63,616 bases of DNA, filler included, from Globobulimina sp. (GCA_003354225.1; 18 parts of 18 records of this genome joined end to end with filler, not necessarily neighbours in it), one strand, 5' to 3'. Numbered from the whole stretch's first letter, positions 37,411-59,269 are shown. The notes: generated by a model not told the origin, from the sequence alone. Translations and numbers: made by a program.

Positions 37411-38849
37411 ATGGCAAACTTAGGTAACTTCCGTGCGTACATCAATGCAGATTGCAAAGGCGATAAAATTAAATTGCCAGAATCGTCATCACAGCGATTG
37501 CTTTCAATTCCAAATATCACATACCCACTATGTTTTGAATTATCAGGTTATTATTTCCATTAAACAAACAAAACATATTTGAACATAACAAATACGAATA
37601 CCAAAAGTGCCAATATCTCGAGAAGACATATTAAATGCAATGCAAAATGGTTAACCCAAACCAGAACGTACCGCAATACATTGCGGCGTATTAGATTTCA
37701 CCGCCGGCGAAGGATGTATTTGTTTGCCACAGTGGATAATGGAGAATTTGCATATAAAAGAAGCAGATCTATTGAATGTATCCAATATCACGTTACCAAA
37801 GGGTCGCTTTGTGCGCTTGCAACCACATTCTGTCTTAAAAGATGTTAAAACTAAACAAAAATTGGAATCATCGTTAAGAAATTTTACGACTTTAACAGCA
37901 AACACAACGATTACCATCCAAAGTATGGACAATTTAAAATTGAATGTATTGCAAGTAAAACCCGATAAAAATAATCTAAATTCCATACAAATCATTGACA
38001 CTGATTTAGTGGTTGAATTTGAAGCGGCTGCGGATGGCACAACTGATACACATCAACACTTTGAGAGGAATTTACAAATAAATAATAGCGAACAGAAACA
38101 GGACATTGTTGATGATAAAGTTAAAAAAGGAGAATATAGATTTTATAAACTCGCATTAAGGTTTGCTACATCATTCAGTTTGAAACTGAAAAATGTAAAC
38201 GTTGGATCAGTTTGAAACTAAAAATAAAACTGTTTGCAGTTTCAAACTGTAAAAACTATAAATTTGCAGTTTGAAACTGTAAAAAAAAAGTCCTCGAAAA
38301 ATGTTTTTTTTTTCAGTTTGAACTGTTTTATATTTGTTTGTAATGTTTAAGTGAGGAAGGAATTGAAAATCTAAAAATCATAGTAACGCCAAGCGATGAT
38401 AAATATGATTTAGATTTATATGCTTCATGGGATAATTATGAACCAGGTACGAATACAGATAATTATGATTATCATTGTGTGGAGCATGGCGCGGCCCAAA
38501 TTATTGTAAACCTAAATGAAAATCACAACAATGACAGCAAATATTTGTATTTGAGTGTACATGGTTTTGAGGAGAACCACGATGACGAGAACAAACAGGA
38601 TGACATTTATATAAATTATACATTGAGTGTCGAGAACATTAGCATGAATGATATGGAAATAAAGGAATTATATCGAGCATCCTCCCTACAAACACACGAT
38701 GAAAAATTAGAGAACAATCAAGATTTACCAGTATCACCCGACGAAAATAAACAATTTTGCACCAATTGTCATCGTTTTGTGAATAAGTGGTCGTTTGATC
38801 GGCATTACCAACATTGTATTAAACAGTTTTGTTTTTGTAACTCCTGCAA
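37411..38849 (+). CDS. UFD1-domain protein with a C-terminal Cys/His zinc-finger region, 3'-partial; introns 37547-37664 (or -37607) and 38161-38351
   Basis: GDKIKLP, YPLCFEL, HCGVLDFTAGEGCICLPQWIMENL, LPKGRFVRLQP, LESSLRNFTTLT, IIDTDLVVEF; C-terminal CTNC..H..HC..C..C. Confidence 0.8.
38176..38325. repeat. Intronic array of palindromic CAGTTT[G/C]AAACT(G) motifs
   Basis: Copies at 38176, 38208, 38237 and 38267, plus a 1-nt-shorter copy at 38314. Confidence 0.88.
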
Positions 38850-56445: not shown

Positions 56446-56648
56446 CCTGAGATTGAGATTCGATGTTTTTGGAGTGTGTAAAACGTTTTTGGTGTGACAG
56501 AGTTTTTTTCACTTCACTTCATTTTAAAGAGTACGTAATGAANNNNNNNNNNNNNNNNNNNNNNNNNNNNNNNNNNNNNNNNNNNNTTAATTAATTAANN
56601 NNNNNNNNNNNNNNNNNNNNNNNNNNNNNNNNNNNNNNNNNNGCCTTA

Positions 56649-56699
56649 CACAAAGGCGCGCGGTCCGCGCGCAACGCGGCGGAGCCGCGTTTCTTTGGG
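56649..56699. repeat. T-shaped GC-rich hairpin core 1 (at the contig edge)
   Basis: Stem caaag/ctttg; arm gcgcgcgg-t-ccgcgcgc; arm aacgcggc-gga-gccgcgtt. Confidence 0.85.
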
Positions 56700-56789
56700 T
56701 CAGTTTAAAAGATTTTGTTTAAACTGATTTTAATGTTTCTGTTTCAAACTAGGTCTTTCTCCCAGTTTGAAACTAGAATATTTGCTCAG

Positions 56790-58573
56790 TTTCAAACTGT
56801 TTCAATATCCATACAATTTTCTATCTGCATTCGCCATACATCCAAATACCATCGCTTTGTCCATCGGATTTGAACCAAATAATGTAATAATATGTATCCT
56901 ATACTAATACTATCATACACTAATACTATCATTTACTAATACTATCATTTACTAATACTATCAGGTTCATTAAAGGCAGCTCGACCGCGGGCGCAACATC
57001 GATATGACAGGCATCGCGAGGCAGCGTTTATCTTCGACCAAGCAGAGGCGACAGAGTGTGATGAAGAAAAGCAGATAATTTTGGATGAAGAGTCTGGGAG
57101 GGATAATATTGAATCATTGGTGCAAAATATTAAACAAAAGCACAAAATGCAAGGCATTTGGGAATTATGGTACGCGAAGAGAGTAAATTTGTTGAAGGCG
57201 CAGGGGGGGAAAGAGAAAATACAGTACCCAATTATCACATTCCTTCAGATAATATGGAGTTTTTGATTATGTGGTTGGTGGCGGCATTATTAGTATTTGA
57301 ACAGGCGAGAGAATATCGCGTGTCGTTTGAAAGGGAGGGATTACTCAGCGCCGCGGTTCATCAAAGGGTTGCGCAAATATTTAATGTTTTGAGGGAGAAA
57401 TATTCGATCAGGGACTATGATCCCATTAATAAGACAATGTCACAGCGAATTTTTAAGAAATTATCCGCGGGGTGTGGGCATCAAGAAGATAAGACCCATC
57501 ACCTCAACGTCCTTTTTAATAAATTGCAGAATGATGTAAACACATTATTGGCATCAAAGAAACAACACGGAGATGATTTCACGCGGCTCACCATGAATGC
57601 CGCATCAAAGAAAATTAACCAATTGCAGCGGCGAAACGAAAAGTCCTCGAAAATGGAGGGCAATTTGGAGGCGACGGTGGCGTCATTACGGGAGATTGTG
57701 GATTTAGAAACGAAGAAATTAATGATTGAAAATAAGAAAAAGGTGGATGAGGAGAAGAGAAATATTGGCATTTTGGTTGGGCGGCAGAATAACAGTGATA
57801 TTGGTTTGTGGCGTTTTTATGCAGTATTTTGGATTAATAAATATTTCTGTGTTTGAAACTGCATTCAAACACACACATTTTAATGGTTTGAAACTGCAAA
57901 AATGCGGCAGTTTAAAATGTATCAAAGGGAGTAACAGTTTCAGTATCATTTTATTATAATAATGCAGTTTGAAACTGAAACTGTACTCTCAGCACACACC
58001 AAATCTATGAAAATACCACAAAGCGGCGCGCTGCGCGCGCCACGCCGCAAGCGGCGTCGCTTTGTGTTATATGCAGATATTTAGTTTGAAACTGAGAGTA
58101 CAGTTTCAGTTTCAAACTACATTATTATAATAAAATGATACTGAATCTGTTACTCCCTTTGATACATTTTAAACTGCTGCATTTTTGCAGTTTCAAACCA
58201 TTAAAATGTGTGTGTTTGAATGCAGTTTCAAACTCCGAAATATTTATTAATCCAAAATACTGCATAAAATGTGTGTTATGGCATTATTTTTGTTTTAGAT
58301 TTGGGGATAGGATATACATTTAATCGCAATCTCGACGAGTCAGTATTTTCGCATTCGTTGAAATATATCGATGACACTGAGGAATATGATGCAATTTCAT
58401 GGATTATTAATAACACCGATAAGATGCGCGAACGTTGTACTTTGCAACAACGCGTGAAATTTATGGAGAATGCAAATTTGAGTGAAAATAGTATCGCGGA
58501 GATGATTTTACGTGCATGTCGTCAATGGGGTGAGCAGGATAAAAATCGTGGAGATGCAACTAAAGAAAATTAA
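56790..58573 (+). CDS. Hypothetical spliced gene (coiled-coil C-terminal half), 5'-partial, with an apparent frameshift; predicted introns 56894-56964 and 57804-58298
   Basis: GT-AG joins keep the frame (VII-C-SLK; SDI-D-LGI); ORFs 57081-57266 and 57158-57856 overlap in different frames around a G7 run at 57203-57209. Confidence 0.5.
56901..56964 (+). repeat. 4 x 16-bp tandem repeat ending at a predicted splice acceptor
   Basis: atactaatactatcat / acactaatactatcat / ttactaatactatcat / ttactaatactatcag. Confidence 0.9.
57815..58269. mobile_element. Foldback element 2: 178-bp inverted arms around T-shaped GC core 2 (58017-58066)
   Basis: Arms 57815-57992 and 58092-58269 are reverse complements with ~5 mismatches; core cacaaagcg-[gcgcgc tgc gcgcgc]-c-[acgccgc aa gcggcgt]-cgctttgtg. 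The repeat is directly visible; mobility is inferred. Confidence 0.7.
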
Positions 58574-58990
58574 ATCTATTATGCAAATTTCTATTTTTTT
58601 AAAGTTTTTAAAAAATTAATAATGATACTTTTTGTATTTGTGAATGTTACCGGTGTCCTGTATTTTGTTCGCATTTCTATCATTATTTGTTTTTCTCGTT
58701 TTGAATATTTTTTTTTGTATTAGTTTGTTGTGTGACTTTGTGCTTTTTTTGGCTCGATTTATACCTATTATGTATGTAATTATTTGCTTTTTTTGTTGTT
58801 TTTATTTTTTATTTTTATATTTACGGATTCATTATGGATTTATGGCCTTTTCTCTCTTTTTTCTTTTTTTGTGATGTTAATTATGTAATTTACTTAAATT
58901 ATATACCAAATCATCTTATTTTTCTTAATAATGACTTTAGAAACGTTTCTACACAAAGTGCAAGGATAATTATTACGCAATTTCGCATTA

Positions 58991-59269
58991 AAATATTATT
59001 ACCAATTTGGCAGCATTAATAAACCCAAAAAGGGATCATTTTATGAGGTATTTGGTATTAAAACAGATGGATTAATATCAGTTTGAAAGAAATATATCCA
59101 GCCCTCACAAAGCAGCGCGCTGCGCGCGCAGCGCGCGCAGCGTGCTGCTTTGTGAGGGATTGCTACATTTCTTTCAAACTGATATTAATCCATCAGTTTT
59201 AATACCAAATACCTCATAAAATGATCCTTTTTTGGGTTTAATAATGCTGCCAAATTGGTAATAATATTT
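58991..59269. mobile_element. Foldback element 3: 103-bp inverted arms around GC core 3 (59102-59158)
   Basis: Arms 58991-59093 and 59167-59269 with ~3 mismatches; core ccctcacaaagca-[gcgcgc tgc gcgcgc]-a-[gcgcgc gca gcgtgc]-tgctttgtgaggg. Mobility is inferred. Confidence 0.7.

Follow-up and report, generated by a model that had tools for sequence, protein, structure and literature searches.

The locus described here raises the question of what kind of element produces three short, self-complementary GC islands, with long inverted arms around them, in very AT-rich DNA of Globobulimina sp. (GCA_003354225.1). The window, i.e., the whole stretch of 63,616 bases that was analysed, consists of 18 contigs of 3,437-3,442 nt each, linked by synthetic N44-TTAATTAATTAA-N44 spacers, and features on separate contigs are therefore not genomic neighbours. 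All three GC islands are confined to one contig (56643-60079). The explanation we favour, with about even confidence, is that they mark a family of non-coding, non-autonomous DNA transposons in an AT-rich eukaryote, similar in build to foldback elements or to MITEs (miniature transposable elements with inverted repeats), and characterized by a conserved centre module. The repeat family itself is real, non-random and unusual, while its mechanism is something that we infer.

GC-rich cores

The three GC islands, hereafter cores 1 to 3, had been proposed in a first-pass annotation of the window, and their coordinates held (Table 1). The pattern CACAAAG-N30-55-CTTTG yields five matches at three loci (two of them matched on both strands) where 0.33 are expected, and none of 100 shuffled sequences reaches five. 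A scan with 24-nt windows containing at least 21 G/C returned only the three core sites in ~61.8 kb, and of the ten regions that exceed 70% GC over 35 nt, the seven outside the cores are ordinary exon sequence. A covariance model, run with filters off, scored the cores at 66.6-78.1 bits, with the next match at 9.8 bits (E = 2.2). No fourth core was found in the window by the pattern, the GC scans or the covariance model. Given that all three cores fall on one of the 18 contigs, they form a strong cluster.

The cores are ~50 nt long and closed by a 7-nt CACAAAG/CTTTGTG stem, with sharp borders and inverted ends of 7-9 nt. Their inner 35-37 nt present 81-86% GC, against 26-31% in the arms, and pairwise identity among the cores is 76-85%. 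Core 1 had been reported to lie next to a contig break; the break is a synthetic spacer, hence a true contig end.

Core folds were computed with DNA parameters. The first-pass annotation had assigned a three-way junction (i.e., two short hairpins closed by a stem, or T shape) to every copy, which holds for core 1, amounts to a tie in core 2, and fails in core 3. In core 1, two hairpins closed by a stem reach -23.4 kcal/mol against -18.6 kcal/mol for the best single hairpin, being favoured by 4.8 kcal/mol. The corresponding values for core 2 are -23.3 against -22.7 kcal/mol on the plus strand, and -23.4 against -20.9 kcal/mol on the minus strand. Core 3 forms only a plain hairpin of 23-27 bp (-33 to -40 kcal/mol) within 6 kcal/mol of the optimum, and its self-identity at lag 9 is 77%. 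Including flanks, the fold z-scores of cores 1, 2 and 3 are -5.9, -4.2 and -10.0, respectively; the 63-nt fold of core 1 has -24.8 kcal/mol. Given that the T shape is missing in core 3 and tied in core 2, it is not a shared feature. What the three cores share is self-complementarity of a GC-rich block, together with an identical closing stem of 7 nt.

Selection on structure had been proposed on the grounds that arm sequences of the junction vary between copies while their pairing is kept. When the three-way structure is imposed on the three-sequence alignment, pairing is kept in 92.9% of 56 cells, and 13 of 19 pairs are invariant. Only two pairs, which belong to the second small hairpin, show two-sided changes, a number also attained in 82 of 500 shuffles. 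In addition, template-switch correction in quasi-palindromes can produce double changes without selection. Given that the covariation lies within the range of the shuffles and that template switching is able to mimic it, structural selection is not demonstrated.

In terms of orientation, covariance scores on the plus and minus strands are 70.7 against 40.9 bits for core 1, and 78.1 against 40.9 bits for core 2. Both asymmetric cores thus share one orientation and no flip/flop is seen, a weak indication given two informative copies. Nothing in Rfam matched the cores at gathering scores. Two microRNA-precursor models matched core 3 far below their thresholds (36.6 bits where the gathering score is 85, and 23.3 where it is 83) and were discarded, the likeness being one of hairpin shape only. 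No tRNA was found.

Inverted arms and the conserved centre module

The foldback structures described in the first-pass annotation are present at elements 2 and 3 (Table 1), which consist mostly of long inverted repeats with arms of 94-97% complementarity, a trait of foldback elements. The two arms differ at 6 of 178 positions in element 2 and at ~8 of 139 in element 3. In both elements the outer limits are exactly symmetric, and symmetry is lowest in the 12-24 nt next to the core. The centre of element 2 (57993-58091), which holds core 2, shows weaker symmetry (77%): a stretch of ~24 nt on each side of the core is only ~60-77% complementary, after which the core stems match again. In element 3, the mismatches are bunched in ~12 nt beside the core stem. 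Folded as single-stranded DNA, element 2 reaches -216.6 kcal/mol (z = -41) and element 3 reaches -144 kcal/mol (z = -30). The left arm of element 1 lies past the contig end; one Logan contig spans 56703-56924 of its surviving arm.

The long arms around cores 2 and 3 had been regarded as largely unrelated to each other. This is correct in so far as the arms are non-alignable, but they have a palindromic 11-mer, AGTTTSAAACT, in common. With this motif masked, local alignment of the arms of elements 1 and 2 yields z = -0.3 relative to shuffles, and for elements 2 and 3 the score is reached by 7 of 300 shuffles. The one significant arm pair is that of elements 1 and 3 (1 of 300 shuffles), in which the match is a degenerate motif copy. 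By eye, the end of element 2 resembled an inner part of element 3, and the ends of elements 1 and 3 resembled each other, but neither likeness was significant and both were dropped.

Allowing up to one mismatch, the 11-mer has 14 matches in the whole window, where 2.41 are expected and none of 100 shuffles reaches 14. Three matches fall in element 1, seven in element 2 and four in an intron on another contig, with none elsewhere. The copies in element 1 lie at 56740, 56764 and 56788, i.e., 40, 64 and 88 nt from the core; those of element 2 are divided into three and four between its two arms; and element 3 has one degenerate copy (two mismatches) per arm, 15 nt from the core. An offset of 15-16 nt is therefore found in the right arm of element 2 and, with the two mismatches, in both arms of element 3, and an offset of 40-41 nt is common to element 1 and both arms of element 2. 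Distal offsets in element 2 are 121-122 and 156-157 nt. The repeats are interspersed rather than tandem, spaced by 24-117 nt, and their number varies by copy and by arm. Given the matching motif offsets and the non-alignable distal arms, the conserved part of the family is its centre module, composed of the core and the phased 11-mers. Since the arms contain a motif specific to the family, whose distance from the core is fixed, their origin as inverted duplications of whatever DNA flanked the core, as had been suggested, is unlikely.

The four intronic matches belong to a motif cluster without a core (Table 1), which fills an intron of ~190 nt (38161-38351) in a UFD1-like gene (UFD1_N2, 1.4e-17). 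Copies are spaced by ~30 nt, the intron has a small hairpin of A/T runs at its end, and a GC core is absent. This cluster may be a core-less relative of the family.

Genomic setting

The contig that holds the elements is nuclear in character, with a GT..AG intron of spliceosomal type and a DDE transposase. It is also transposon-like, given that it carries a DDE_Tnp_4 gene and that both of its genes have diverged copies (~85-88% identical) at higher depth in the one sequencing run that contains the contig. The remaining contigs encode ordinary eukaryotic proteins (CDC45, PIP5K, RhoGEF, Kelch, C-type lectin, CysRS, UFD1). A bdelloid rotifer host was considered and dropped, given that the relatives of the transposase belong to a protist/eukaryote proteome set and that the CDC45 fragment reaches 116 bits with chains of 650 aa (yeast) but 84-102 bits with chains of 566 aa (animal). 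The window has a GC content of ~32% and its introns are tiny, those of the CysRS gene, used as a control, measuring 42-51 nt.

Element 2 lies in an intron of a gene here called gene U, and only 40 of the 495 nt of this intron are outside the element. Given that a remainder of 40 nt corresponds to a normal intron in this genome, element 2 looks like a discrete insertion unit. Gene U's homolog P0007 aligns on both sides of element 2 and is collinear across the site. An introner was considered and rejected, as the splice sites are located outside the element. Element 3 sits between the stop codons of gene U and of the convergent DDE open reading frame (ORF), and element 1 is upstream of gene U, adjoining a 16-nt satellite. 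The Harbinger transposase that had been reported next to the cores was confirmed by the match of this ORF to DDE_Tnp_4 (Table 1).

Table 1. Features of the elements and their surroundings, in coordinates of the window.
Feature	Position	Strand	Description
Core 1	56649..56699	.	GC-rich CACAAAG...CTTTGGG; 6 nt from contig start
Core 2	58017..58066	.	CACAAAGCG...CGCTTTGTG
Core 3	59102..59158	.	Extended stem CCCTCACAAAG...CTTTGTGAGGG; plain hairpin made of 9-nt repeats
Element 1, surviving right arm	56700..56894	.	Outer limit uncertain, set by satellite start
Element 2, 455-bp foldback	57815..58269	.	Arms 57815-57992/58092-58269, 178 nt, 97% complementary
Element 3, 279-bp near-palindrome	58991..59269	.	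Arms 58991-59129/59131-59269, 139 nt, 94% complementary
Core-less motif cluster	38176..38322	.	Four exact or near-exact copies and one degenerate copy; contig 35411-38849
Gene U, upstream coding part	56946..57803	+	Frameshift near 57225
Intron of gene U holding element 2	57804..58298	+	495 nt, GT..AG, in-frame splice
Gene U, last exon	58299..58573	+	tblastn with P0007 residues 505-578, E 5.8e-11
DDE transposase-like gene, C-terminal 256 aa	59304..60074	-	DDE_Tnp_4, 4.7e-18; PIF/Harbinger-type

A fraction of 0.49 of the contig's sequence words is present in one public sequencing run, and none is present in two sister runs; no RNA run is listed as a holder of these words. The Logan contigs of the holding run were placed on the contig at 80% likeness, with depths given as the sum over all contigs placed. 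They cover the contig piecewise at a depth of 3.6-12.7, none of them spanning a whole element. One run contig (record 5) carries a diverged last exon of gene U, with 57 differences in 383 nt and a depth of 22.5. Another (record 7) carries a diverged 3' part of the transposase, ~86-88% identical with 57 differences and 14 gaps, at a depth of 35.9, and starts at 59243, within the last 27 nt of element 3. Given that record 7 contains both the end of the element 3 arm and the 3' end of the transposase, their adjacency predates the divergence of the copies.

Comparison with known systems

In common with foldback elements such as Drosophila FB, Meloidogyne Tm1 and D. virilis Tetris, the present elements have arms of variable length and variable short internal repeats (PMC3169594, PMC4079207). 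Tm1 elements contain 1-9 units of ~14 bp, have terminal inverted repeats (TIRs) of unequal length with a mean TIR-TIR identity of 93%, and include MITE-like members shorter than 0.5 kb; in the Tm1-HH subgroup, the arms are separated by a conserved hairpin, which is a captured histone 3' hairpin (PMC3169594). Further likenesses to foldback families are arms that are ~93-97% alike, small MITE-like non-coding members and insertion sites in non-coding DNA. The foldback build is accepted as arising in different superfamilies, and the ends of cut-and-paste elements are normally their best kept part, Tetris and DAIBAM sharing their TIR termini (PMC4079207). Foldback families have conserved termini, target-site duplications (TSDs) of 8-10 bp and tandem repeats, whereas here no TSD or common terminus was found, the 11-mers are palindromic and interspersed, and the GC hairpin centre is the best conserved part. 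The first-pass annotation had likewise set the elements apart from ordinary MITEs, a view with which the conserved centre and the non-alignable outer arms agree.

Tourist-like MITEs of the PIF/Harbinger superfamily are similar to the present elements in being small, AT-rich, non-coding and intronic, and in adjoining a DDE_Tnp_4 gene; in contrast to them, no TWA duplication was found here and the partner gene U has no Myb-like domain. The cores themselves resemble the GC clusters of yeast and the double-hairpin elements of chytrids and Schizosaccharomyces, which are GC palindromes of ~40-50 nt with sharp borders in AT-rich DNA (PMC4478555, PMC10085805). Variants of these mitochondrial elements arise by merging and by shuffling of hairpin halves (PMC4478555, PMC10085805), and the double-hairpin elements are detected by a GC content above 75% over 35 nt combined with double-hairpin potential (PMC10085805). 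The mitochondrial elements are solo, whereas the cores studied here have a nuclear-type context and are each centred in a longer palindrome with phased motifs.

Two short GC hairpins closed by a stem, as found in cores 1 and 2 only, recall the T-shaped inverted terminal repeat (ITR) of adeno-associated virus, and the first-pass annotation had drawn an analogy to parvoviruses and HUH nucleases. In contrast to parvoviral ITRs, however, none of the cores terminates a linear genome, no Rep/NS1 was found, and core 3 has no T shape. None of 46 translated ORFs matches a Rep, HUH or parvoviral family. Elements 2 and 3 lie in an ordinary chromosomal context rather than at the ends of a molecule, and a terminal-hairpin origin is not supported by them either. 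The parvovirus analogy thus fails on every testable feature. A Helitron 3' end, in which a GC-rich hairpin precedes the CTRR terminus by 10-12 nt, was rejected as well, given that none of the cores has a CTRR in the 15 nt downstream of it, whichever strand is read, and that the structures are symmetric. Altogether, the family looks like a foldback-type build with an unusual conserved GC-hairpin centre, and not like a virus-like replication origin.

Searches for relatives

Among viral contigs, the core pattern was found at 12 loci, all of them in phage contigs with 59-71% GC and none family-like, and the motif-pair pattern was found at 2 loci. Metagenome contigs yielded at least 120 core-pattern loci; among the matches listed, none is AT-rich with a GC core, and the only locus below 40% GC (L086) has an AT-rich interior. 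The covariance model gave at most 27.2 bits on the metagenome matches listed, against the 66.6-78.1 bits of the contig's own cores. In prokaryote genomes, at least 121 motif-pair loci were listed. Considering these 121 together with the 2 viral ones, none of the 123 loci combines a GC content below 36% with a GC island, defined as a 20-nt window with at least 18 G/C. One of the loci (L200) is an unrelated tandem repeat of Bacteroidota and was set aside. In all three collections, the matches listed were thus attributed to chance or to unrelated sequences.

A different repeated hairpin accounts for 25 of the 120 metagenome matches listed (L013-L132; e.g., L045, L071, L073 and L079). It is composed of CACAAAG(0-3 nt)GCGCGC, an AT-rich loop and GCGCGC(0-3 nt)CTTTGTG, and occurs in contigs with 52-59% GC, mostly of soil type. 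This hairpin resembles REP-like elements and would be of bacterial or archaeal origin, and it presents the same stem words only because the search pattern selected for them.

The first-pass annotation had not recognized the cores as belonging to a described family. No such family was found in the papers searched, nor were the core strings.

Origin of the elements

In the explanation we favour, each copy is composed of a GC hairpin core of ~50 nt with the CACAAAG/CTTTGTG closure and of AGTTTSAAACT on both sides at ~15-16 and 40-41 nt; beyond this module, AT-rich inverted arms differ by copy and are kept 94-97% complementary within each copy. A protein supplied in trans would bind the repeated 11-mers as a dimer, the obvious candidates being the product of the DDE transposase-like gene 35 nt away and that of gene U. 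The element would move in one piece and be inserted in non-coding DNA, e.g., in introns. The GC core could act as a stable nucleation point for a snap-back or cruciform form, and the T shape would be an accident of some copies rather than a functional feature. Further copies are hinted at by the run: four of its contigs track the inner arm of element 1 to 56799 and then diverge, contigs with depths of 25-48 present variants over the arms, and one contig with a depth of 26.6 joins core-1-like and core-2-like halves on opposite strands. Given that this run is possibly the assembly's own source, these are not independent evidence, but hints only.

Apart from this dependence on a single run, several results weigh against the explanation. 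Only three copies are available, all of them on one 3.4-kb contig of 18, and dispersal is therefore not shown. No joint corresponding to the loss of element 2 or 3 (i.e., an empty site) was found in the run's contigs, and no relative was found in the viral, metagenome or prokaryote collections scanned. At elements 2 and 3, no direct repeat of at least 8 nt (one mismatch allowed) was found at the limits with offsets of up to 8 nt in either direction. The longest exact direct repeat has 6 nt and is located 7 nt inside the arms on both sides, hence it is not flanking. The triplets next to element 2, TTA at its left limit and TAA at its right limit, belong to the inverted repeat and do not form a direct one; those next to element 3 are TTA (left) and ACA (right), so that neither has the identical TWA duplication expected of Harbinger MITEs. 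The outer ends are not conserved between copies either, their motif-masked alignments being at shuffle level. Finally, the link to the neighbouring transposase is one of adjacency only, and the contig ends before the 5' part of the DDE gene and before any Harbinger terminal repeat.

The foldbacks could instead be internal or terminal structures of a single two-gene PIF/Harbinger-like unit, formed by gene U and the DDE gene, and be copied only together with it. The presence of all three cores on one of 18 contigs suits this idea, as do the diverged extra copies of both contig genes in the run (records 5 and 7) and the adjacency of the element 3 arm to the transposase, older than the divergence of the copies (record 7). 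The TTA directly to the left of element 3, with none to the right, would fit a Harbinger end, yet it is likely to occur by chance in AT-rich DNA. Such a unit seems unlikely to us, since element 2 occupies an intron whose remainder is normal-sized, like a later insertion, the motif also occurs in the unrelated UFD1-like gene, and the contig does not contain the limits that the presumed large unit would have. Harbinger partner proteins carry a Myb/SANT domain, and none was found in gene U. A rather unlikely origin is that of a tiny mobile palindrome, in which the ~50-nt core alone is the element, being a nuclear counterpart of the mitochondrial GC clusters that became lodged at the tips of pre-existing AT-rich palindromes. 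The cores do have sharp borders, inverted ends of 7-9 nt and 81-86% GC in surroundings of 26-31%, two of three fold as double hairpins, and a motif cluster without a core exists in the UFD1-like intron. They also exceed the 75% GC over 35 nt by which, together with double-hairpin potential, the mitochondrial elements are recognized (PMC10085805), cores 1 and 2 having two hairpins and core 3 a palindrome; yeast GC clusters, palindromes of ~42 nt, multiply, merge and shuffle (PMC4478555). However, the contig is nuclear in character, as its GT..AG intron and DDE transposase indicate; none of the three cores is solo, the left side of core 1 lying beyond the contig; no duplication flanks the cores on reading the sequence; and the motif offsets are fixed across copies, which argues that core and motifs travel together.

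The core could also be a self-priming, nicking or resolution site (rolling-hairpin, HUH or resolvase), with arms copied from the hairpin. This hairpin-dependent route, with an element defined by its centre as the first-pass annotation had suggested, would account for a conserved centre with distal arms that are not conserved, for outer limits that are exactly symmetric in each copy, for the absence of TSDs at elements 2 and 3, and for the asymmetric stretch beside the core in both of them. Binding-site-like palindromes are repeated on the sides of the GC hairpins with constant spacing, which makes for an origin-like layout. We nevertheless find such a route quite improbable: no match to Rep, HUH, NS1 or a resolvase was obtained for any of the 46 ORF translations, elements 2 and 3 lie within chromosomal DNA, the two asymmetric cores are oriented alike, and core 3 has no T shape. 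Moreover, copying of one arm predicts perfect symmetry up to the core, whereas symmetry is lowest over the 12-24 nt adjoining it. It is doubtful, on a broader formulation, that the ~140-nt centre module is the unit of inheritance, propagating and building or maintaining its inverted arms through a hairpin route, for instance self-primed copying or a resolution step, or as a counterpart of the mitochondrial double-hairpin elements; if it were, centre-module mobility or palindrome formation would be a mode not described for nuclear eukaryotic repeats. As for an amplification or assembly artefact, the assembly is fragmentary, coverage in the single holder run is low (3.6-12.7x), no single read-derived piece spans a whole element, and contigs break at palindromes, as at core 1. 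On the other hand, the arms differ at 6 of 178 and ~8 of 139 positions, their inner portions lack symmetry, elements 2 and 3 each have a left flank unlike the right one, and the flanks of element 2 are two in-frame exons of one gene, collinear with its homolog; given this, an artefact is unlikely. Logan contigs, possibly from the assembly's own data, also cross the arm/flank junctions at 57815 and 59269 (records 4 and 6), and altogether we consider an artefact very improbable.

Returning to the foldback/MITE-like family, its dispersal would make it a foldback repeat whose conserved part is a GC hairpin centre with phased motifs resembling protein sites, and not its termini. This would bear on how foldback elements are recognized and moved, and on whether nuclei, too, contain GC-rich hairpin micro-elements of the kind so far found in mitochondria. 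Short-read assemblies are broken by elements of this type, as with core 1 at the contig end, and hairpins of 280-455 nt placed in introns could enter small-RNA pathways or cause replication to stall. Should the three elements prove to belong to a single composite transposon, the finding would be an ordinary one.

Neighbouring genes and satellite

The DDE ORF is cut by the contig end and is open over 256 codons, with 35 nt between its stop codon and element 3. Its identity to P0001, a protein of 341 aa, is 73%, and its relatives were drawn from a protist/eukaryote proteome set. Only five DDE_Tnp_4 relatives (P0001-P0005) were found when proteins of similar length were considered. They are short (302-352 aa), with a hydrophobic stretch at their start and basic residues after it, an uncommon arrangement in PIF/Harbinger transposases.

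Gene U and the DDE gene converge, and the former may represent the second gene of the transposon to which the latter belongs. The copy on this contig is without the N-terminal ~370 residues seen in its homologs. No match to gene U was found in Pfam, PHROGs or PDB, and only four relatives were found among 1.84 billion representatives, to which a profile search added none. Its family is thus very narrow, comprising proteins of ~420-670 aa without a known domain. The leads obtained from the Atlas (DUF6532, Basidiomycota), at 0.82, are weak and below the Atlas's meaningful level. The AlphaFold model of gene U is too poor for a fold search, with a mean predicted local distance difference test (pLDDT) score of 49 and a predicted template modelling (pTM) score of 0.27.

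Directly beyond the arm of element 1, a tandem repeat with a 16-nt unit (TATCMTAYACTAATAC-like) is present in four copies at 56895-56960. The bin that contains this satellite has a summed depth of ~594,000, 124,000 and 488,000 across three sister runs. Given that it is deep even in the two runs without the rest of the contig, the satellite is very abundant in the sample.

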